The notes beneath the pieces were generated by a model. It saw only the letters and a list, made by a program, of their open reading frames with translations, had not been told where the DNA came from and made no database searches. Below are positions 45,508 to 56,625 of a stretch of 64,000 bases of DNA, piece by piece; position 1 is the stretch's first letter, and the number at the start of each line of letters is the position of its first letter. This DNA is from an uncultured Gammaproteobacteria bacterium. Its GTDB lineage: Bacteria; Pseudomonadota; Gammaproteobacteria; UBA9214. Both the position numbers and the translations under genes were made by a program. Where the stretch lies: positions 96,001-160,000 of the forward strand of contig CAWHCQ010000012.1 in NCBI GenBank assembly GCA_963827755.1. Reading direction: 5' to 3'.

Positions 45508-46296
45508 ATGGAAACTATCAGGGAGCCTGCGGTAGCTGGCAGCTTTTATCCAGCCAACCCGCTGGAGTTAAGGTCAATGCTGCAAGGCTACCTGGCGCAG
45601 GCCGCTGCAGGCGGGCCTGCCCCGAAGGCAATGATCGTACCGCATGCCGGTTATATTTACTCAGGCCCGGTAGCAGCCAGTGGTTACGCCCGCCTGCTGC
45701 AGGCAGCCGATCGCATCAACCGGGTAATCCTGCTCGGACCCGCTCACCGGCTCGCATTCAGGGGGCTGGCAGTGCCCGACGCCGACGGCTTCAGAACCCC
45801 GCTGGGCATCATATCCCTGGACAAGCCCGCGATCCGGGAGCTGCTCGCCCTGCCGCAGGTCCATCTCAGTGAGGAGGCACACCGCCAGGAACACAGCCTG
45901 GAAGTACACCTCCCCTTCCTGCAGGCCACCCTGCATGATTTCACCCTGGTACCGCTGGTGGTCGGGGACGCCTCACCCGCGGAGGTGAGCGAGATTATCG
46001 GGCATTTCTGGGACAGCCCCGGGACACTGATCATTATCAGTTCTGACCTGAGCCATTACCATGACTACGACACAGCGGTAAAACTCGACAAAATGACAGC
46101 ACATGCCATCGAAAACCTGGCGCTGGAAAATATCGGCTATGACCATGCCTGCGGCCGTAATCCCGTCAATGGCCTGCTGCTCTATGCCAGGGAGCATGGA
46201 CTTGCTGCGCAGACAATCGACCTGCGCAATTCGGGCGACACCGCCGGCCCGCGCGACCAGGTGGTCGGTTACGGCACCTGGGTAATCAACCAGTAG
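45508..46296 (+). CDS. amrB: AmmeMemoRadiSam system protein B (MEMO1 family)
   Basis: REPAVAGSFYP, PHAGYIYSG, EHSLEVHLPFL, SSDLSHY, ACG, NSGD...VVGY. Confidence 0.92.
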   Translation: METIREPAVAGSFYPANPLELRSMLQGYLAQAAAGGPAPKAMIVPHAGYIYSGPVAASGYARLLQAADRINRVILLGPAHRLAFRGLAVPDADGFRTPLGIISLDKPAIRELLALPQVHLSEEAHRQEHSLEVHLPFLQATLHDFTLVPLVVGDASPAEVSEIIGHFWDSPGTLIIISSDLSHYHDYDTAVKLDKMTAHAIENLALENIGYDHACGRNPVNGLLLYAREHGLAAQTIDLRNSGDTAGPRDQVVGYGTWVINQ

Positions 46297-46297
46297 C

Positions 46298-46891
46298 ATG
46301 ACCTGCACACCTGAAGAACAAATGGGCCTGCTGCAGGTGGCGTTGGAATCAATTGAATCCGGCCTGGGATCAGGCAAACCGGCAAGCGGCGACAGCCGTG
46401 CAAGCATCGGGGCTCTCGATAAACCAGGTGCCAGCTTCGTTACCCTGAAAAAACAAGGTGCGCTGCGTGGCTGTATCGGCACGCTTGAGGCACACAGGCG
46501 CCTGGTTGACGATGTTGCCGCCAATGCCTTTGCAGCGGCATTCCGCGATCCGCGTTTTGATAAACTGGCAAGCGAGGAACTGGACTCCCTGGAAATCGGA
46601 ATTTCCATACTCGGACCCAGGGAAGCGCTCGTATTTGATTCACAGCAGGCATTGCTTGACATGCTGCGCCCCGGCGTGGACGGCCTGGTTCTGCATGACG
46701 GCAATGCCAGGGCAACGTTTTTGCCTGCTGTCTGGGAGTCACTACCGCAACCTGCGGCGTTTCTTGGGCAACTCAAGCAAAAAGCCGGGTTACCGGCCGA
46801 CTACTGGTCGGATACGCTGGAGGTCTGGCGCTACACGACCGAATCGTTTGCTGGCGCCGTTGCGGAAATAAGAAATTCGAAGGACAGTTGA
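46298..46891 (+). CDS. amrA: AmmeMemoRadiSam system protein A (AMMECR1 family)
   Basis: FVTL, LRGCIG, AAFRDPRF, TFLPAVW, L..KAGL. Confidence 0.92.
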   Translation: MTCTPEEQMGLLQVALESIESGLGSGKPASGDSRASIGALDKPGASFVTLKKQGALRGCIGTLEAHRRLVDDVAANAFAAAFRDPRFDKLASEELDSLEIGISILGPREALVFDSQQALLDMLRPGVDGLVLHDGNARATFLPAVWESLPQPAAFLGQLKQKAGLPADYWSDTLEVWRYTTESFAGAVAEIRNSKDS

Positions 46892-46892
46892 T

Positions 46893-47402
46893 TTATTGCT
46901 GAGCAGGACTCAGCCAGGCAAACATAACGCTTGCCAGCAACATCATCAACAACAGGACCCGCAAGCGTCTTGAATCCGGTCGCTTGCTTTCGGATGACAT
47001 GGCACCGGCAAACAGGTAGTGGCTTAACAGGGTATTGGCATCTTTACCACGACGGTTCGGTGTTGTTCTGCGTTCTCCATGGGATTTCAGGTGATGCTTG
47101 TCATTAGTACTGCGACGGTCATTGCGGCGCTCATCCGCCTTCATATGAGCAATCACCAGCCGCTCATAGTCATCCCGGCCGGATTGACCTGCCAGTTCGG
47201 CCGGCAGCAGGCTGGCAAGACGCCGTGCAACAGACCAGTTCTCACGGTCCTGGCTGAGCTCGTCATCCAGGCGTATACGCCCGAGTAATAGATAGCTGGA
47301 GATATTTTCAGCCGTAAATGGCCCGCGCATTACTCCGTCACGCCGCGTATACCAGCACCTTCCAGGATGCTCGTCATGCTTGACGGGAGATATCAGGCTC
47401 AT
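46893..47402 (-). CDS. hypothetical tail-anchored protein (GYF_2-like N-terminus, Arg-rich ERR/DRR motifs)
   Basis: WY..R.G..RGPF...I...L..GRI...D..S.D...W; ERRNDRR and ERRTTPNRR; C-terminal hydrophobic helix; starts 13 bp after the fliA stop. Confidence 0.75.
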   Translation of the reverse strand: MSLISPVKHDEHPGRCWYTRRDGVMRGPFTAENISSYLLLGRIRLDDELSQDRENWSVARRLASLLPAELAGQSGRDDYERLVIAHMKADERRNDRRSTNDKHHLKSHGERRTTPNRRGKDANTLLSHYLFAGAMSSESKRPDSRRLRVLLLMMLLASVMFAWLSPAQQ

Positions 47403-47415
47403 CGTTTTTCGCTCG

Positions 47416-48144
47416 TTATTCGACCAGCCAGTTCTCCATGCGTGCACGCAAACGAATCAATGCCTGGCCGTGAATCTGGCACACCCTTGATTCGCTCACA
47501 CCGAGTATGTCACCGATCTCACGCAGGTTGAGTTCTTCGTCATAGTAGAGGGCCATTACCAGGCGCTCACGCTCAGGCAAACCCTTGATGGCCTCGGCCA
47601 GACCCTCCTTGAAATCTTCATTCTGCAGGGTATCCAGCGGCTGGTTCAGCTCGCGGCTGTTGCTGGCATAACCTTCCTCGCCGGCGTTCCCGGGATCTTC
47701 AAAACTGAATATCCGGCATCCTGTCGCATCCTGCAGGATCTTGTGATAATCCTCCAGTTCAAGGCCCATGGCTTCAGCAACCTCCACGTCTCGCGCATCG
47801 CGACCCTTCTCGTTCTCGATCTTGCGTACAGCCTCTGCAACCTCGCGCGCCTTGCGATGCACGGAACGCGGCGTCCAGTCGGTGCGCCGTATTTCGTCAA
47901 GCATGGCACCGCGAATCCTGATTCCGGCATAGGTCTGGAAACTTGCCCCCTGTTCCGGATCAAACTTTCTCGATGCCTCTATCAGGCCGATCATGCCAGC
48001 CTGGATCAGGTCATCTACCTGCACGCTGGCCGGCAAACGGCTCATCAAGTGATAGGCAATACGCTTGACAAGTGTTGCATGGCTTTCGACAAGGTCGTTA
48101 TTCGCTCTAAATTCACCAGCCTGTTTCGCTGTATTGGATTTCAT
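47416..48144 (-). CDS. fliA: RNA polymerase sigma factor 28 (FliA)
   Basis: LVKRIAYHL..RLPASV..DDLIQAGMIGL, YAGIRIRGAMLDE.RR.DW.PRSV, LYYDEELNLREIG..LGVSESRVCQIH. Confidence 0.96.
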   Translation of the reverse strand: MKSNTAKQAGEFRANNDLVESHATLVKRIAYHLMSRLPASVQVDDLIQAGMIGLIEASRKFDPEQGASFQTYAGIRIRGAMLDEIRRTDWTPRSVHRKAREVAEAVRKIENEKGRDARDVEVAEAMGLELEDYHKILQDATGCRIFSFEDPGNAGEEGYASNSRELNQPLDTLQNEDFKEGLAEAIKGLPERERLVMALYYDEELNLREIGDILGVSESRVCQIHGQALIRLRARMENWLVE

Positions 48145-49028
48145 GACAACACCTCCACGTTTATATCTTCATTTTGAATAAGACGTTCTACAAAAAATTC
48201 CAGGTGTCCGCCTGCACGGTCAGGCCGTGGCCATGCAAGTACCCGCCTGGCCAGACTCTTGAGTGCCATTGCAGCGCGGCTGCGCGGAAAGGCAGCAACA
48301 ACTGCCTGATGCTGCGAAACAGCATTGCGGAGATTCTCATCGAAAGGAATAAAACCGGTATAGGAACAAATGATATTGTGATTTGTCGAAGTCAGGCGCT
48401 GCAATGACCTGAATGTTTCTTCGCCTTCGGCGGCGGTCCTGACCATGCTGGCCAGTATCCGGAAACGCGAAATTCCGAACTCCGATGACAACATATGGAT
48501 CTGTGCCGCGCTATCCCTGAGCGAAGCCGGCTCATTGCAGACGACCACCAGGACTTCGGTCGCAGCACTGCAAAAACTGGTGACGACATCGGAAATTCCG
48601 GTAGCCGTATCGATCACCAGGGTATCAACAGGCTCTCTCAGATCACTGAATGCGCGAACAAGTCCGGCACATTCATTGATGCCGACATTCGCCAGTTGCC
48701 TGATACCCGATGCCGCTGGAATAATCATCAGGTTATCCGTGCCATCAAGAATGACATCTTCCAGCAGGCATTCGCCGCTAAGGACATCGAGCAGGGTTAT
48801 GTGCGCATCCAGGCCAAGCAACACGTCAACGTTTGCCATGCCAAGATCGGCATCCAGCAACATGGTGCGATGCCCTTCAGCCGCCAGCGCCAATGCAAGG
48901 TTGACGGCAATGTTGGTCTTGCCGATGCCGCCCTTGCCGCCGGTCACGGCAATTACCTGCACCGGCCGCTTGTCCGTGGCTTGTGTTGCTGCCTCGCAGC
49001 CACCCAGCTTGACTTCAGACTGTGGCAT
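48141..49028 (-). CDS. flhG: MinD-like ATPase FleN/FlhG
   Basis: VIAVTGGKGGIGKT, LDADLGMANVD, C-terminal GHLEFFVERL typical of FleN; ATGA overlap with fliA. Confidence 0.9.
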   Translation of the reverse strand: MPQSEVKLGGCEAATQATDKRPVQVIAVTGGKGGIGKTNIAVNLALALAAEGHRTMLLDADLGMANVDVLLGLDAHITLLDVLSGECLLEDVILDGTDNLMIIPAASGIRQLANVGINECAGLVRAFSDLREPVDTLVIDTATGISDVVTSFCSAATEVLVVVCNEPASLRDSAAQIHMLSSEFGISRFRILASMVRTAAEGEETFRSLQRLTSTNHNIICSYTGFIPFDENLRNAVSQHQAVVAAFPRSRAAMALKSLARRVLAWPRPDRAGGHLEFFVERLIQNEDINVEVLS

Positions 49029-49119
49029 GTGAATGTTCCCCGGTTGTTTGCAGTGCGCGACGTTTGCTCATGACTTTTCCTGTTTATGTGGTTACGTATT
49101 TGTGCGTACCTACCTATCA

Positions 49120-49136
49120 AGCAAATTGCATACCAG
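49120..49136 (-). promoter_or_regulatory. sigma54 (-24/-12) promoter of flhG-fliA
   Basis: Minus strand CTGGTATGCAATTTGCT (GG-N10-GC), about 90 bp upstream of the flhG start. Confidence 0.72.
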
Positions 49137-49235
49137 ATTTTTTCAGCCATGAAAAAAGTCCGAAAAAAATCGCCAAGTAATTGTATTTAAATAATATATT
49201 AGAAATTGATCAGCAGGCGGGGTAAGGTGATAGTG

Positions 49236-49251
49236 CGTCATATACTTGACG
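49236..49251. promoter_or_regulatory. putative FleQ-binding enhancer
   Basis: Palindrome CGTCA-TATACT-TGACG matching the 14-bp FleQ box pattern GTCA-N6-TGAC, 100 bp upstream of the sigma54 site with an AT-rich tract in between. Confidence 0.65.
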
Positions 49252-49379
49252 AACCGGAATGAATGCCAGGGATCCGGCGCTTTTATGCAGGAGGTTGGCG
49301 GACGGAATGCCGGGGCAACAGACAGCAGGGTCAGCCGCCCCGGGCGATGCTGAAGTGACACTTCAGCGGGGCGGGTACT

Positions 49380-51624
49380 TCAGCCGGAAGCGCGGGCAGC
49401 GGCTAACCAGCTTGAGAAATGCTCGTCCGGCAAGGGTTTGCACATATGAAATCCCTGGGCTGCATCACAGCCGAGACTGTCGAGCATATCCCAGGAGGAA
49501 CTGTTTTCCACGCCTTCTGCTATGACCTTGAAGCCGAGGTTATGTCCCAGGTCGATAATTGAACGCACAACGGCGACATCCTGCTGACCGGAGGCAGGGT
49601 CCGTTATGAATGACTGGTCAATCTTCAGTGCGTGTATCGGCAGATGCTTCAAGACGGGAAAGCGAGGAATAACCGGTGCCAAAATCGTCAATCGCAACCG
49701 ATACGCCGCAATCACTCAACTGCATCAATACCTCCGCTGCATGATCAATATCCCGCATCAGTGTCGCTTCGGTTATTTCTATTTCCAGACAGTCTCCATC
49801 AACGCCTGCCTCGTTTATTGCTTTGCGTATTCTGTCAAGCAAGCGTGGATCGTGAAAGGTTTGCGCAGAAAGATTTACGGATACCGGCACGGGTGTGCCC
49901 TCGAACGACCATTGCCTGCACTGCAGCAACGCCGTGAGCAGCACCCAGTCAGTTAACTGCGTTATCAATCCCAGTTGTTCTGCAAGAGGAATGATCCTTT
50001 GCGGCATTAGCACGCCTTCCAGGGGGTGAATCCAGCGCAACAGGGCCTCGGCAGCGTTGATACGCGAGGTCTGCATATCAAGCTGCGGCTGGTAATACAG
50101 TTCAAACTCGTCGTTTTCCAGCGCAGCAGGCAGTTGTCCGGAAAAACGCAACTGTTCGACCGGACTGACATCAGTCAACGGGGCAAAATACTGATAAGGC
50201 AAACCATCCCGCCTGGCACGCTTCAGGGCATTTTCTGCATTCTCGAGCAGGGATTCCTCATTCATGCCATTTTCAGGAAAACAGCTGATTCCAAGCGTGA
50301 CGCCAACACACAACTGTTTGTCCCGTACGAGAAAAGGTATGTTCATTGCATCCAGAATCCGGGTGATGACACGATCCGCCGCAGCCCTTGCATGACTCGC
50401 AGGCTGCAACATGATACCGAAGCAATCAGCCCCCAGACGTGCCAGCAAATCTGACTCGCGCACAAGCGCATGCAGGCGCCTGGCAACATCATGCAGAAGG
50501 ATGTCGCCAACATCATCTCCAAGGGTATCGCTGTACATCCTGAATTGATTGATATCCAGCACTATCACAACAAGCTGTGAACCGGGTACGCGCCTGGACA
50601 CTGCCAGTGCCATGCTCAAATGACTCATCCAGAGTGCACGGTTCGGTAATTGCGTGAGCTTATCGGTCGTCGCGAGGCGTTCAGATTCGCTGCGCTCAGC
50701 AGTCAGCTGGTGGATGTCCTCTACAACGCAATGAATCTTTGCAGTTCGACCCAGACGGTTGCATACCGGATAAAACGCAACCCGGTACCAGTGTAATTCT
50801 CCACCGGCAAGCGACATGCGCACGTCGACATGACCGGTACTTCCATCGACAGCGTTCGTCCAGCCCGTAAGCAGCTTCTGCCGATCTTCCTCGCAGGTGT
50901 CAGACAAGCAGGGTAATGGCGCCTCCAGGCCTTCCCCGTACAGGCCCTGCGAGGACCGGTTTGCGAAAACCACGTTATTTTTCCTGACGTCCACGCTCCA
51001 GAACAGGCCGGGCAAACTGTCGAGCAACTCTTCAGCCCTGCCCCGGTCCTTTTCAAGACGGGCCAGTTCGCTGCCGACAGACTCCCCGGCTGCCTGCCAA
51101 TAACCCTCCATGACCAGGCCAAGGTTTCGAAGCAACAACCTGTTCAGCACAGATTCAAGTTTCCGGCTGTCATCCGGCGCGAGGTTCAGACCGGGTAACA
51201 GCCCTTTAAGATGATCGATAAACAGATGATAGGTAGCGATAATCCAGACCGGCTTGAAACCCTGCTCGAAGTGTTGCGCACCCGCTCCTGCCAGTGTGTT
51301 TTCATGGCCAGAATCTTTTTCCGGCACAAACACATCAAACAGGCAGGCCAGCTGCGCACGAACCCATTGGCCGATATCGCCCCCCTTTCTTTCGCAGGAA
51401 TACAATATGTTGGCAATATCGGGGTTTCCGAACAGGTATTCATAATATATCTCTGCAAACCCGGTGGCTGCACGGGCAATACGATCCCGATATCTGTTGA
51501 AAATCCGGTTATCTTCAGCCGATAACCGAAACACATAGTAATATTCTTTTGCGTAAACACCCTGCCGGTTTATCGCATCAACTGATGCAGGACTGGCATT
51601 ACGATTGTTCTTTTTTTCTGTCAT
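49380..51624 (-). CDS. globin-coupled sensor / PAS / degenerate GGDEF / EAL protein (frameshift near 49650)
   Basis: Sensor globin features (IYYEYL, GAQHFEQG..PVW...Y), PAS-like segment, RESD-x5-GADCF, EAL domain with EALLRW, DDFGTGYSSL | KIDQSF, AEGVE, QGF. Confidence 0.88.
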
Positions 51625-51974
51625 GACCTGAATCGGGTTATGATTTTCATTAAACGATTGCGCAAGCACCGGGACATCAATCGGAGCTGCACTCGAACAC
51701 ACACAATGACCCGGTCGCCTGTATGTCAGTACGACGGATCAGGGTAATCAGCAAATGAAATAATTATTATTCCCGGAAAGCCCCCTCCCGGTCATATTTT
51801 GCGAATGAATCTACCACAGCAACGATTCGGGAGAAAGTCTGTTTATCGACAACAGTTCATCTGTTATCGCGCCAGCATGCGAATGCTATGCTATTAATCG
51901 CTTTCTTTATGACATTAACCGGAACCGGTTAACGTTGTCCGACACAAAAGTTTACAAAATAGTTGTCGTCAGGG

Positions 51975-53405
51975 TTATGACGCTTGCGAGTTTCTCTGCA
52001 GACCATACTTGCGAAGTTTTTCTACCAGCGTTGTTCTGCGCATACCCAGCCGTTTGGCCGCATGCGCCACCACACCACCTGATTCCGACAAGGCCTGCTT
52101 GATGTAACTGATTTCCAGGGATCCAAGGTGCTCCTTCAGATTCAAGCCATCCCTGGGAAGACGCGGATCAAGATCCTCCGAGGTAACCGGGGAACCGATC
52201 AAGGCATCGAGCATTTGCTCGGAAACCTCGCCATCGTCGCTGCGGAATTTTTCCGGAAGATCGGCCGCGTCAACAACGGCATACGGATGCAGGATTGCGA
52301 GACGCTCGATCAGGTTGGCCAGCTCCCTGACGTTGCCGGGCCAGCTATACTGGCAGAGCGCGTAAATAGCGGCCGGTGAAAACCTCACCGAGCCGCGCTT
52401 CTCGTGCTCGATCCGGCGCACCAGTTCGTTGGTCAGCAGGGGAATATCCTCGAGCCGCTGACGCAACGGCGGCATCTCGATCGGGAACACGTTCAGCCGG
52501 TAAAAAAGGTCCTCGCGAAATTCGCCCGCGGCGATCGCCTCCTCCAGGTTTTTGTGCGTCGCTGCAATAATCCGCACGTCTGTGGTAATGGTTTGATTCG
52601 ACCCGATGCGTTCAAAAGTACGCTCCTGCAGGACGCGCAATATCTTGACCTGCATCTGCAAGGTCATGTCGCCGATTTCATCGAGAAACAGGGTGCCCCC
52701 GTTGGCCATTTCGAAGCGGCCCTCACGATCCGAAATCGCCCCGGTAAACGCGCCCTTGGTGTGGCCGAAGAGTTCAGACTCAAGCAAGTCACCCGGAATT
52801 GCGCCGCAGTTGACCGGCACGAAAGGCCCGTTGCGACGGGCAGAATAATAATGGAGGTTCCTGGCTACGACTTCCTTGCCGGTTCCGGACTCGCCCAGAA
52901 TAAGCACGTTGGCATCGCTTTCAGCAACCTGCTTGATCATTTTCCTGACATCCTGAACCGCGCGGCTGCTGCCAACCAGGCTTCTGAACAACTCAACCGG
53001 GCGATGGGGCACGGCCTCGGACTGCTGCGACTCCACGTAGACCTCGGCCTGGTGCAGGGCACTCGTCAACTGGGCGTAATTCGGGGGAACGTCCAGACGT
53101 CCGAGAATGCAGGAGCCCGGGTCGATGGTAATCGTTGGTTCCTTGCCCTTCTCGGAGAGTAAATATATCGGCAGATTTTCATCAACATCATGAATTTCGC
53201 CGACGATCTTCGACAACCTCGCGTCTGTTTCGCACGAGCCGATCATGACCGTCAAAAAATCGGAACAGTCGCCGGCCCGTTCTTTCCAGCGGTCACAATC
53301 ACTGACCAGCAACGGGGCACAATTGACGAACTTGAGGACGGCCTGCAGTTCTTTTCCCTTCTCCGGATCTGAATCGATTATCAAGACCTTGGGTTCGCTT
53401 TGCAT
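51975..53405 (-). CDS. fleQ: sigma54-dependent regulator FleQ/FlrA
   Basis: REC-like N-terminal domain, [48 protein letters not shown]-terminal [15 protein letters not shown]. Confidence 0.93.
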
Positions 53406-53834
53406 GTGAATTCCTGAAGGTGTGGTTATTTTGACTGATTATTATAAAAACCGGAGAATTATTAAAGTTATTTATGAACGATCTCTGTACTCGCCTATCC
53501 CGCTGAAGTTAACCACCCCGAAGCAAGGTTGTCAAAACATCACTGCTGGCAAACAAATACGTAATGTCGGGACTTTACATCGACCCTGCGGGTCTTTCTA
53601 TCTCATTGTAAAAAGTTAACAATCCGGGCTGACGGAAAATACACCCCTTCGGGCAGGCCTGCTCGTCCGTGCCCCCGCCTTATCGCTTCCCGCCAGGGGT
53701 TTTATACCGCTCGACAGAACCCTGCAGCTGAATAACCGGCATCAGCATCACCCTGCCGGTGTCTGTCAATCTGAATGATAGACCAGGTTTCGCCATTTTT
53801 TCGCCGCTTTGTGATCGACACCCCAAAATCACCC

Positions 53835-53861
53835 TAAACTCACCCCCGGCGGTGACGATAC
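53835..53861 (+). promoter_or_regulatory. putative sigma28 promoter of flgM
   Basis: TAAA-N15-GACGATAC immediately upstream of the FlgM-like ORF. Confidence 0.68.
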
Positions 53862-53877
53862 CTTTACTAGATCAATT

Positions 53878-54114
53878 GTGATCAGTACCAACAACAATCA
53901 CCGACAAACAAGCCGCAAAATTTACCAAAAACGGTACAAGCATCCTATGATTATTCAACCGCCAGATATCCCGGAAATCAGTACAAGCCGGATTGATACC
54001 ATCCGTAACCGGCTGGATGAGGATAACTACATTGTCGACATTCAACAGATAACCAGCAAATTCATTGACCTGGAAATAGCCCTGACGGGGCCAGGCAACG
54101 CACGGGTCGCCTGA
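53878..54114 (+). CDS. flgM: FlgM-like anti-sigma28 factor (start GTG 53878 or ATG 53947)
   Basis: PEISTSRIDTIRNRLDEDNYIVDIQQITSKFIDLE fits the FlgM C-terminal pattern (RV..IK..I..G.Y.VD...IA.K.I); sigma28 promoter upstream; fliA nearby. Confidence 0.7.
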   Translation: MISTNNNHRQTSRKIYQKRYKHPMIIQPPDIPEISTSRIDTIRNRLDEDNYIVDIQQITSKFIDLEIALTGPGNARVA

Positions 54115-54223
54115 GCAGACTCTCTTCCCGAAATCCGGATTCATCCTTCATATAGAATGCTCTTTGTACAGGGTGTTAGAATGCCGTCTGGTTTTTCAGG
54201 AATAAACCTATTAAACCTGTAAC

Positions 54224-54299
<76 letters not shown>

Positions 54300-54351
54300 C
54301 TTTTCATTGGACAGGCTCGTGTCTGGCCTCTTTTCGATTATCCGCACCAGG

Positions 54352-54428
54352 GTCCCGGTAGCTCAGCTGGATAGAGCAAGCGCCTCCTAAGCGCTAGGTC
54401 GGAGGTTCAAATCCTCTCCGGGACGCCA
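54352..54428 (+). tRNA. tRNA-Arg(CCT)
   Basis: GTCCCGG/CCGGGAC acceptor, anticodon arm AGCGC-CTCCTAA-GCGCT, GTTCAA, CCA end; 77 nt. Confidence 0.96.
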
Positions 54429-54452
54429 TTTTAAAAACAGGCGCGCTGCCCC

Positions 54453-56625
54453 TTACACCACCCGGCGCGCCTCGACCACGTTCGGCAACTGGCCGATCAG
54501 GGTAAGCACACGACTCAGTTGCCCGATGTCGGAAATCTCCAGCGTCAGCCGCATGCGGGCAATCCCGTCGCGCTTGTCGGTTGCCGTATTGACGCCGCCC
54601 AGGTTTATTTTTTCATTGGCCAGCAAGGCCGTGATATCGCTGAGCAGGCCGGAGCGGTCATAGGCCTGCACCGATATCTCCACCGGGTACGTGTCTTCGA
54701 AAGACTCCCCCCACTCCACCTCGATCAGGCGGTCCCGGTCATCGCCCTGCAACCTCAGCACATTGCCGCAATCCTGGCGGTGAATACTGACACCACGCCC
54801 GCGCGTGATATAGCCGACAATCGGGTCATTCGGAACCGGGCGGCAGCACCGCGCGATGGTTGTCAACAGGTTGCCGACACCAAGAATCTTTATTCCGCCG
54901 GGTGAGCTGGGCTGCTTCTTTTTCCTCGCTGCGTTTCTTTTCCGGCTGCACAGGGGCGCTGCGCGGCACCAGTTCGCTGGCGGCATTGGCAAGCTGGCCG
55001 GTGGTGATATCACCCCGCCCGATCGTTGCCAGCCATTCATCCACCTGCTTGAAATTGAACCGGCCTGCCATTTTCTCGATGGGCAAGCCGCTGATACCAA
55101 GGCGATGGTATTCCCGGTCAAGAATCGCGCGGCCGGCACTGACATTGAGCTCGTAGTCCTGGTGCTTGAACCAGGCACGGACACGCGAGCGCGCGCGGGA
55201 GGTCTTCAGGTAGCCCAGGTGGGTATTGAGCCAGTCCCGGCTCGGCCCGCCGTGGCGGGCGGTCAGGACCTCGACCTGCTCGCCGTTTTGCAATTCCCGG
55301 GTCAAGGGCACGATGCGGCCATTCACCTTTGCACCGCGACAGCGATGTCCAACCTCGGTATGGACCGCATAGGCAAAATCCAGAGGCGTTGCACCCTGCG
55401 GCAAATCGATAATCCTGCCCTGCGGGGTCAGGACATAGATACGCTCGAGGAAGGCCTCGGATTTGAAACCGGTCGACAAAATCACCGGCACTGTGCTCCT
55501 CGTCCTTCCATTCAAGCAACTGCCTCAGCCAGGCAATCTTTTCCTCGTAGCCGGGATCAAAACCGCTGCCTTCCTTGTAGCGCCAGTGGGCCGCGACGCC
55601 CAGCTCGGCATGCCGGTGCATTTCCTCGGTGCGAATCTGTATCTCCAGGGTGGCGTTTTCCGGCCCGACGACGGCCGTATGCAGGGAGCGGTAGAGGTTG
55701 TCCTTCGGGTTGGCGATGTAGTCGTCGAACTCCTTCGGGATGTGGCGCCACAGGCCATGCACGATACCCAGTGCGGCATAACAGTCCTTTTCCTCCTTTA
55801 CCAGTATACGTACCGCGCGCATGTCGAAGATCTGGTCAAAATCCAGGTGCTTGCGCTGCATCTTTCTCCAGATGCTGTTGATGTGCTTGGGGCGGCCGCT
55901 GATCACCGCCCGAATACCCTCCTTTTTCAGGGCCGCTGTCGAGAATATCGATGACCTTGTTGATGTAACGTTCACGCTCTTCCCGGCTTTCATGCAGCTG
56001 GTCCACCAGGTTCTGGTAGGCATCCGGTTCCAGGTAACGCAACGCCAGGTCCTCCAGCTCCCACTTGATCTGCCAGATACCGAGACGGTTGGCCAGCGGC
56101 GCGTAGATCTCCATGGTCTCCCGGGCAATGCGCTGCTGCCGTTCCTTGTCCAGGTGCTCCAGGGTGCGCATGTTGTGCAGCCGGTCGGCCAGCTTGATCA
56201 GCACCACGCGGACATCTTCCGCCATGGCCAGCAGCAGCTTGCGCAGGCTCTCGGCCTGCCCGCCTTCATAGAGGCCGGCCTTGCCGGCGTCCTGGAATTC
56301 ACCGATGCGGTCCATTTTGGTGACGCCGTCCACCAGGCGGGCAATCACCGGGCCAAAACCGTCCTCGATCTCCTTCAGGGTAAGCGTCGTATCCTCGACG
56401 ACATCATGCAAAATCGCAGCCGCGATTGTTTCATGGTCGAGTTTCAGCCCGTTGAGGATCGCGGCCACCGCCAGCGCATGCAGGTAGTAGGGCTCCCCCG
56501 AGGCGCGCTGCTGGTGCTGGTGGGCCTCGACGGCCGTGTTGACGGCCCTCGTGAGGATCGCCCGGGCGTCGTCGGGACGATCGGCGAGCAGCGATCTCGA
56601 CGCTCTGCCGGGCTGCCTCCTTCAC
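54453..56625 (-). CDS. relA: RelA-type long (p)ppGpp synthetase/hydrolase (several frameshifts; start approximate)
   Basis: RASGEPY, LHDVVED, IKLADRLHNMRTL, APLANRLGI, GRPKHINSIWRKM, EFDDYI, YRSLHT, TGS domain (TPLDFAY.VH..VGHRC), CC zinc domain and ACT domain spread over five ORF fragments. Confidence 0.9.

Follow-up and report, generated by a model that had tools for sequence, protein, structure and literature searches.

We examined a stretch of DNA of 64,000 nucleotides (hereafter the window; contig C12:96001-160000) from an uncultured gammaproteobacterium whose genome, labelled G000, was assembled to 2.85 Mb in 52 contigs and is 91.8% complete. The window carries a compact locus of FleQ-FleN-FliA-FlgM-type regulatory genes. 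On the minus strand, fleQ (51975-53405), encoding a sigma54-dependent enhancer-binding protein, is followed by a globin-PAS-GGDEF-EAL gene with a degenerate GGDEF domain (49380-51702), fleN (48141-49028), encoding a MinD/ParA-type ATPase, fliA (47416-48144), encoding the sigma28 factor, and a gene for a GYF-like membrane protein of 184 amino acids (aa; 46893-47447), which overlaps the end of fliA and closes the fleN-fliA operon. fleN and fliA are co-oriented with a 4-base overlap. A short flgM (55 aa; 53947-54114) lies on the plus strand, divergent from fleQ. All open frames of the locus are intact except that of the EAL gene. This arrangement had been proposed in the original prediction, and the family and Protein Data Bank (PDB) matches agree with it. 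Comparisons were made within a set of 37 species genomes of the genus, all metagenome bins, with related records labelled Gammaproteobacteria; the public runs containing the stretch are sediment metagenomes.

FleQ matched the Pfam families FleQ (PF06490; E 1e-15), Sigma54_activat (PF00158; E 2e-75), HTH_8 (PF02954; E 2e-12), and AAA_lid_14, and aligned over residues 4-472 with Pseudomonas aeruginosa FleQ (8p53_C; E 4e-167). Its GAFTGA, LFRS, RN (of GKEVVARN), and E-x3-R motifs hold the same residues as the P. aeruginosa chains 8p53_C and 5exx_A in the aligned columns. The retention of these motifs, as claimed earlier, is thus borne out column by column; LFRS, the RN after Walker A, and ExxxR are what we take to be the residues of P. 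aeruginosa FleQ that contact cyclic di-GMP (c-di-GMP). FliA scored 315 bits against NF005413 (cut-off 201) and 274 bits against TIGR02479. Its mean column identity is 90% (32 sequences), and regions 2 and 4 show no variation in 32 genomes. RpoN is present in G000.

FleN aligned with P. aeruginosa FleN (5j1j, E 1e-88, residues 16-286; 8p53_A, E 6e-88), and its deviant Walker A motif (GGKGGIGKT) falls in line with that of 5j1j. The fleN gene of the window lies with fleQ and fliA and not with flhF, and its product is only 49% identical to the flhF-linked copy of the flagellated relative G002 (G002:C6:303400-304224). Two FleN/FlhG paralogues, ~45-49% identical to each other, occur in all FlhA-positive genomes. 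Measured against the G002 flhF-linked protein, the flhF-linked copies are 68-100% identical and the fleQ-linked copies 39-49%. Aflagellate genomes carry the fleQ-linked FleN only, the flhF-linked paralogue being confined to FlhA-positive genomes. As for the membrane protein, the predicted gene is present and directly follows fliA in 35/35 stretches, but its product has no match in Pfam or NCBIfam and reads as a GYF_2-like N-terminus, a basic linker, and one C-terminal hydrophobic helix. It is probably 169 aa long, starting from M16. Its neighbours in a protein atlas are hypothetical proteins of ~160 aa, with GYF_2 on about 20% of members.

The protein encoded between fleQ and fleN matched the Pfam families EAL, GGDEF, PAS_4, and Protoglobin. 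The GGDEF site is degenerate (GADCF) and the catalytic EAL motifs are all present (EAL, N, ExE, DDFGTG, KxD, EGVE, and QG), so the protein is predicted to be a phosphodiesterase and not a cyclase, a kinase, or a methyl-accepting chemotaxis protein (MCP). The globin domain alone matched Pfam Protoglobin at E 4e-5; a phmmer search of this region against the PDB returned nothing at E ≤ 1, and a globin profile reached E 0.027 at best. The question of a sensor globin was settled by a fold search, in which the domain model (predicted local distance difference test, pLDDT, 85.6) retrieved the sensor globins 8h17, 5ohf_C, 1or6_B, and 2w31_A, with AfGcHK, HemAT, and GsGCS among these best matches, at template-modelling scores of 0.70-0.84 and E 2e-4 to 6e-4. 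A histidine stands at the aligned proximal position in the window protein and in its relatives G012 and G019. In the assembly the gene is split into two open reading frames (ORFs; 49618-51702 and 49380-49715), the first of which, 694 aa long, stops in the middle of the EAL domain, with the remainder continuing in the other frame. The EAL parts lie in one continuous frame in relatives.

The flgM-like gene is present and divergent, as predicted, but only as a short C-terminal form. Its frame is open from GTG 53878 and its probable start is ATG 53947, which leaves only the C-terminal sigma28-binding part. At a distance of 350-530 bp from the start of fleQ, orthologues of 50-58 aa occur divergent from it in 27/27 relatives with the flank present. 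Counting the window, 28/28 members match Pfam FlgM at E ≤ 1 (best 7.6e-9); the window's own copy reaches 17.3 bits (E 0.0056), short of the cut-off of 25, and covers only profile positions 22-54 of 55, without the N-terminal export part. A profile of the family found FlgM 9wsf_B in the PDB at E 4e-5. The family also takes in 145 database proteins of 50-69 aa (E ≤ 0.001), and among 120 of these 145 many are named FlgM by JGI/NCBI. BLASTP of the short FlgM against the canonical FlgM of G002 gave no alignment, the kinship being visible at the profile level only. A short, largely cytoplasmic FlgM is also known from Helicobacter pylori. A structural model of the complex between FliA and the short FlgM scored 0.74 (best control 0.06) and places the predicted interface on sigma regions 2 and 4. 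The mark applied to such scores is reached by 116/157 solved complexes and by 2/215 mismatched pairs; the model runs share at least 60% of contacts, with a partner pLDDT of at least 68.

Flagellar genes in the genome and across the genus

Our searches found no structural flagellar gene in G000, in agreement with the earlier description of a locus without flagellar genes. Profile searches for Flagellin_N, FHIPEP, and Flg_bb_rod returned no matches in this genome (the controls responded), and no flagellar gene was among the tblastn matches of 102 ORFs from the 100-kb cluster region of G002. By the FHIPEP profile and the cluster ORFs, no flagellar export apparatus was found either. Members of the rod family are likewise missing from G019 and from the other nine FlhA-negative genomes that are at least 90% complete. 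In polarly flagellated gammaproteobacteria the four regulators lie in three contexts, namely fliS-fleQ-fleSR, flhA-flhF-fleN-fliA-cheY, and flgA-flgM-flgN. Inspection of the surroundings of our locus agreed with the claim that it lacks the fliS-fleQ-fleSR, flhA-flhF-fleN, and flgA-flgM-flgN settings.

The G002 cluster spans ~52 kb and runs from flgL to flgA, flgM (105 aa), flgN, motAB, flhFAB, fliM, and fliK to fliE, followed by a gene for a receiver-less sigma54 activator, fliD, flaG, and fliC. In the same tblastn search, the genes flanking this cluster were found in order on contig C31 of G000, where the two bracketing genes are 300 bp apart. C31 is contiguous across the G002-type cluster site and also across the G015-type site (the G015 cluster abuts the equivalent of C31:93.4 kb), and neither form of the cluster is there. 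The empty junction, an antitoxin-like gene beside a DUF3301 gene, occurs in 18 FlhA-negative genomes including G000. Three flagellated genomes, G013, G015, and G043, share it; their cluster is located a few kb from there. Reading the C31 junction as a clean deletion is weakened by these three genomes, and we therefore treat it as an empty site and not as a datable deletion.

FlhA is present in 17/37 genomes. In three of these (G008, G017, and G018) flhA is interrupted by internal stops and split into 2-5 pieces (G008:C1:176113-178091, G017:C6:387335-389300, and G018:C10:186582-188547) while the cluster is still present. Flagellar decay may be under way in these three; the alternative is indel errors in few-contig assemblies. 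fliA was found in 35/37 genomes, including 19/19 high-quality ones, at 82-96% identity and nearly always in a single copy. Extra partial copies of fliA (and fleN) on the small contigs G015:C263, G016:C20, and G019:C325 could be due to strain mixture or contamination. The fleQ/globin-EAL/fleN/fliA/membrane-protein block is complete and colinear in 28/35 stretches, with the other seven ending at a contig edge inside the block, so that the synteny asked about in the original prediction is conserved. In the G022 block (L120; 10 contigs, 83% complete) nearly every gene is in pieces, which looks like assembly indel errors.

The compactness of the locus had been seen as a feature of the flagellum-less state, and this does not hold: the 28 complete blocks come from 12 genomes with an intact flhA, three with a fragmented flhA, and 13 with none. 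Being common to flagellated and aflagellate members, the locus predates the losses and is not a by-product of them. The flagellated relatives have no other fliA, so the locus is evidently their flagellar master locus. Outside the genus, where FleQ is 54-70% identical, the gene order is fliC-flaG-fliD-fleQ-(kinase)-fleR-like-fliE...fliK. fleQ thus sits inside the flagellar cluster there, and the regulators would have moved out of it in the ancestor of the genus. The two nearest outgroup loci (L031:21172-21435 and L033:20891-21253) have a globin-domain gene after fliK in the flagellar cluster. This suggests that the association of the globin-EAL gene with flagellar genes is older than the relocation of the regulators. 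Another Gammaproteobacteria bin (L050:10001-11887) shows a compact pairing of another kind, in which the gene for a sigma54 activator that matches FleQ residues 143-472 only stands directly before a fliA homologue (51% identity).

A tree of the locus (FleQ, globin-EAL, FleN, and FliA; 33 rows; midpoint-rooted) groups G000, G012, and G019 in a fully supported clade, all of whose members are aflagellate and which has diverged to a synonymous divergence (dS) of 0.4-1.0. Mapped on this tree, flagellar state changes at least five times, or four times if only high-quality absences count, and occupancy of the cluster site changes three times. Since the tree is midpoint-rooted and built from the locus itself, gains and losses are not separable on it.

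To evaluate selection on the locus, we used pairwise Nei-Gojobori ratios of nonsynonymous to synonymous divergence (dN/dS). For fliA these are 0.03-0.07 in six aflagellate pairs and likewise 0.03-0.07 in five flagellated pairs; for fleQ, 0.05-0.07 and 0.05-0.09, respectively. In the aflagellate pair G000-G012 the ratios are 0.05 for fleQ, 0.03 for fliA, 0.22 for fleN, 0.21 for globin-EAL, 0.22 for the short FlgM, and 0.32 for the membrane protein, compared with 0.09 for the neighbouring glgB, 0.11 for glgC, 0.13 for amrB, and 0.25 for amrA. The flagellated pair G013-G015 gave 0.07 (fleQ), 0.05 (fliA), 0.10 (fleN), 0.13 (globin-EAL), and 0.11 (short FlgM). Across pairs, the membrane-protein gene ranges from 0.16 to 0.34. 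fliA is the most constrained gene of the locus. The fleQ and fliA values in the aflagellate clade are no higher than those of flagellated pairs or those of glgB and glgC, which supports the earlier proposal that the genes are retained and not decaying under relaxed selection.

The flanks of the locus are as first described. amrB (Memo) and amrA (AMMECR1) lie on the plus strand at 45508-46891, convergent to the block, and tRNA-Ala(CGC) at 54224 and tRNA-Arg(CCT) at 54352 occupy the plus strand on the other side (54224-54428). In one half of the genus, the conserved neighbourhood to the right of the locus consists of amrB/amrA and glgB/glgC. An Rfam scan of 46000-55000 (E ≤ 0.1) returned these two tRNAs only, with no riboswitch in the long intergenic regions. 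Scans for sigma70 promoters and terminators gave 8 and 10 hits against 6.2 and 7.9 in shuffles; as these counts were not regarded as above the shuffles, the scans were not used for operon definition.

Promoters and predicted sigma28 targets

Three regulatory elements had been claimed from the sequence, and all are found in place, at fixed positions in relatives. The predicted sigma54 promoter TGGTATGCAATTTGCT lies on the minus strand at 49120-49135, 91 nt upstream of the fleN start. The palindrome GTCAAGTATATGAC (GTCA-N6-TGAC; 49237-49250), a candidate FleQ site, lies 115 nt upstream of the sigma54 site; we presume its likeness to the P. aeruginosa FleQ box and treat it as a candidate only. 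Among the genus loci, 29/30 have a sigma54 site 93-128 nt upstream of fleN, and 27/30 have the palindrome at an unchanged distance. G000 contains 35 sigma54-like sites, among which only the fleN promoter has a GTCA-N6-TGAC box within 260 nt. On the plus strand, a predicted sigma28 promoter (TAAACTCACCCCCGGCGGTGACGATA, TAAA-N15-GACGATA; 53835-53860) precedes the short flgM, and 22/28 loci have a site of the form TAAA-N15-GnCGATA, its spacer varying, 94-113 nt ahead of the start of this gene. The wiring first proposed, from the box through sigma54 to fleN-fliA and from sigma28 to the flgM-like gene, is therefore conserved among the genus loci.

A strict sigma28 pattern (TAAA-N15-GCCGATAA-type) occurs 26 times in G000 compared with 10 times in a reversed-sequence control. 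Two predicted non-flagellar targets from this genome scan, which had been suggested earlier, were followed up, and both are conserved. The first is a chemosensory operon on contig C40, which encodes a response regulator, CheW, and an MCP, followed by a CheA-receiver hybrid of 1669 aa (ChpA-type) that is the only CheA detected in G000. Its predicted promoter in G000 is TAAAGTTTG-N10-GACGATA. A TAAAGTTTG..GnCGATA promoter is found in 25/30 loci (GACGATA in 22, GTCGATA in 3) from both aflagellate and flagellated genomes, the aflagellate ones including G012, G048, G020, G004, G010, G014, G023, G051, and G003. NCBIfam gave the chemosensory proteins no equivalog-level name, and for the label Pil-Chp-like we consequently rely on the order of the genes and on the hybrid CheA of 1669 aa.

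The second target, on contig C21 of G000, is an MSHA-type pilin gene preceded by TAAAG-N15-GCCGATA; a sigma28 site stands before the gene in 10/12 orthologous loci. The pilus ATPase carries an MshE-type c-di-GMP domain (MshEN; 59 bits, cut-off 38), and PilO is present in G000. The surrounding MSHA-like cluster (C21:158000-169427) encodes a histidine kinase, a receiver, a GGDEF-EAL protein, the MshE-type ATPase (STAS+MshEN+T2SSE), T2SSF, two pilins, and a CBM96 protein. It lies at the contig end, and its homologue in G002 is separated from the flagellar cluster by ~24 kb. Other strict sites of the sigma28 type were noted at C12:73578, 22 kb before the window and ahead of a FimT/GspH-like minor pilin gene, and at C13:5203, ahead of a 151-aa ORF that belongs to no family. 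In the flagellated G002, which has a single fliA, a near-consensus sigma28 site (TAAAG-N14-GACGCTAA) lies upstream of fliC.

Interpretation of the retained regulators

Taken together, we consider it likely that this is the genus-wide master regulatory locus of a polar-flagellum programme, kept and working after loss of the flagellar island and wired to the short FlgM, the chemosensory operon, and the pilin. The regulators are probably retained and functional, redirected to pilus and chemosensory genes. The original prediction of a hierarchy retained or repurposed for a non-flagellar programme stands with respect to the conserved regulators and the non-flagellar sigma28 targets, but not in tying compactness to flagellar loss. 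Under the reading that we favour, the regulators would have left the flagellar cluster for a locus of their own in the ancestor of the genus, while the structural genes stayed on the ~52-kb island, which has a FleN/FlhG paralogue of its own, linked to flhF, as well as a full-length FlgM and the receiver-less sigma54 activator. The window's species and at least nine other well-assembled species would then have lost the island and kept the regulatory locus under strong purifying selection. FleQ and sigma54 would drive fleN, fliA, and the membrane-protein gene from the promoter with the upstream GTCA-N6-TGAC box. FliA would in turn drive the short FlgM, whose binding to FliA would complete a negative loop, as well as the response-regulator-CheW-MCP-ChpA-type operon and, in G000, the pilin gene of the MSHA-type pilus with the MshEN-domain ATPase. 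We infer that FleQ binds the box, that FleN and c-di-GMP modulate FleQ, and that pilus-based surface behaviour is the output. Judging from its domain content, its gene position, and what is known of Pseudomonas FleQ, the globin-EAL protein would lower c-di-GMP on a gas or redox signal.

Several observations weigh against this reading and need to be considered. The bin is only 91.8% complete and has 5.4% contamination, every promoter discussed here is predicted, the public runs listed for 49000-50200 of the window include no RNA run, and the dN/dS ratios were taken pairwise at dS 0.4-1.2 and not from branch models. The nearest relatives G012 and G019 are without the strict GTCA-N6-TGAC box. The flagellated kin carry the same chemosensory operon and promoter; in G050 the ChpA-type kinase is the only CheA detected, and no CheA at all was detected in G007. 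With the operon shared and no other CheA seen in these two genomes, it may be an old flagellar chemotaxis operon and not a pilus system. The pilin gene occurs in 12/37 genomes, of which 11 are FlhA-positive and the twelfth is G000, and it is absent in the two closest aflagellate relatives. A target of this limited distribution cannot explain the retention of fliA across the genus, and we rejected it as the general reason for keeping fliA. The pass of the FliA-FlgM model is ambiguous because FliA-FlgM complexes have already been solved, and it may reflect likeness to these and not binding by this copy.

The phosphodiesterase contributes two further points of this kind. The putative proximal histidine is present in only 13/26 orthologues. 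The other 13 have Leu or Tyr in the column of globin residue 114 (180-aa fragment); in seven of them a histidine follows three residues further on, and the remaining six, mostly from the G003/G010/G023/G051 group, lack a histidine at either place. The domains of the EAL gene are present as predicted, but its frame is broken in the assembly by one extra base at 49653, as located by alignment with four relatives. This base is not within a long homopolymer. It is missing from the contigs of 3/3 public runs covering the site, one of these contigs having two other differences in 568 bases. Given its absence from three independent contigs, we assume that the population carries an intact gene and that the frameshift arose in assembly or is a variant of very recent origin.

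A different explanation is that the locus was kept only for a flagellum-independent, c-di-GMP-responsive control of exopolysaccharides or adhesins by FleQ, as in Pseudomonas, with FliA persisting only through its operon with fleN. The conserved c-di-GMP contact motifs of FleQ, the phosphodiesterase gene in the locus, and the 71 GTCA-N6-TGAC boxes counted in the G000 genome would suit this idea. However, fliA is the most constrained gene of the locus, its cognate promoters are conserved at three gene sets, its cognate anti-sigma factor was kept together with it, and no exopolysaccharide target was identified in G000. We therefore regard this explanation as unlikely.

It is also conceivable that the absence of flagellar genes is an artefact of assembly or binning, with the flagellar contigs left unbinned or contig C12 derived from another organism. 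In a 52-contig draft with the completeness and contamination given above, an island of ~52 kb could fit on one missing contig, and the presence of the empty junction in three flagellated genomes means that the junction alone does not exclude a cluster elsewhere. Against this, C31 runs uninterrupted through both the G002 and the G015 cluster neighbourhoods with neither cluster present, the same empty junction recurs in the other 17 FlhA-negative genomes examined, the other nine such genomes of at least 90% completeness are likewise without rod genes, and congeners from other studies have the same flanking genes (amrAB and glgBC) as the window. Such an artefact appears very improbable to us. Least credible of all, and largely refuted, is a decaying remnant in which functionless leftovers of a recent flagellar loss are becoming pseudogenes: it could draw on the EAL frameshift in the window and on the fragmented flhA of G008, G017, and G018, but the frameshifting base is absent from all three independent contigs, the remaining frames are intact, FliA regions 2 and 4 are invariant, the promoters are conserved, fliA and fleQ are as constrained in the aflagellate pairs as in the flagellated ones, and the G000-G012-G019 clade has kept the genes despite its divergence.

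Beyond the favoured reading of a retained master locus, a bolder extension can be proposed, which we hold only tentatively and consider more doubtful than not. The FleQ-FleN-FliA-short FlgM cascade with the globin-coupled phosphodiesterase might be a core-genome switch for surface behaviour, into which a self-sufficient ~52-kb flagellar island (with its own FlhG, exportable FlgM, and sigma54 activator) plugs in and from which it drops out repeatedly. The short FlgM might then be an export-independent anti-sigma28 factor that provides a sigma28 checkpoint without a hook-basal body, and the split between FleN (anti-activator) and FlhG (placement) might have made the apparatus dispensable while the regulators were kept.

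Comparison with known systems and significance

The kind of case described here is known from Legionella. According to a review of the Legionella flagellar regulon (PMC5655016), most flagellar genes are gone in L. israelensis while fleQ, fliA, fleN, and flgM are kept, L. oakridgensis and relatives keep fliA and flgM, and the L. longbeachae subclade has fliA, fleN, fleSR, and chemotaxis genes but no flagella. G000 fits this type, with structural flagellar genes absent and fleQ, fleN, fliA, and flgM intact. The same four regulators outlive the apparatus in non-flagellated Legionella, where FliA is credited with non-flagellar targets (PMC5655016). In contrast to Legionella, the four genes lie here in one compact locus in which the globin-coupled EAL gene separates fleQ from fleN, FleN is a paralogue distinct from the flhF-linked FlhG, and an FlgM of 50-58 aa occurs beside a 105-aa FlgM in flagellated kin. 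Our lineage also differs in being a free-living sediment lineage known from metagenomes, with chemosensory and pilin genes as its conserved sigma28 targets. Lysobacter was considered as a second precedent and rejected, fleQ having been lost in that genus according to PMC9927559. The accessible portion of a recent preprint (10.1101/2025.11.22.689265) contains no mention of regulators kept after loss.

The locus resembles the P. aeruginosa FleQ-FleN-FliA-FlgM hierarchy in the full-length homology of FleQ and FleN, the adjacency of fleN and fliA, and the FliA-type promoters. It differs in placing fleN-fliA under a predicted sigma54 promoter with a palindromic box, and in that flagellar targets and the usual contexts are absent. 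In Pseudomonas, fleN-fliA is FleQ-independent. Like other FlgM anti-sigma28 factors, the short FlgM has the C-terminal helices, a predicted interface on sigma regions 2 and 4, and, as classically, a gene that is predicted to be sigma28-dependent. Unlike them, it is about half as long (50-58 aa compared with 105 aa in G002), its N-terminal half is missing, and it persists without an export apparatus. With regard to globin-coupled sensors such as HemAT, AfGcHK, GsGCS, BpeGReg, and DosC, the modelled protein shares the N-terminal sensor-globin fold joined to an output, but here the output is PAS, a degenerate GGDEF, and EAL, and only part of the genus has kept the histidine. For the HD-GYP type, a globin-coupled phosphodiesterase was reported in 2024 as newly identified (PMC10882959). 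Our keyword search of open-access literature listed no paper that describes a globin-coupled EAL enzyme beside fleQ or a pilG-chpA operon dependent on sigma28, which is not proof of absence. What is new in this genus is the dedicated locus with a globin-coupled EAL gene, the FleN/FlhG split, the export-incompetent short FlgM next to the canonical form, a ChpA-type operon whose predicted control by sigma28 is conserved, and genus-wide changes of flagellar state with unchanged constraint on the regulators; the keyword search listed no paper on these five features.

The Legionella precedent rests on few species and is entangled with virulence, and the present genus offers a cleaner comparison. 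That the same locus persists in a genus of 37 genomes through at least four changes of flagellar state, under equal selection, argues for a permanent role of sigma28 and FleQ beyond flagellar assembly. Candidates for that role are the ChpA-type chemosensory operon and the type IV pilin genes. The case also indicates how a structure can become expendable once its regulators have moved away from the cluster that encodes it. Finally, the short non-exportable FlgM, the FleN/FlhG paralogues, and the globin-EAL gene between fleQ and fleN provide hypotheses on how c-di-GMP may control the choice of motility.

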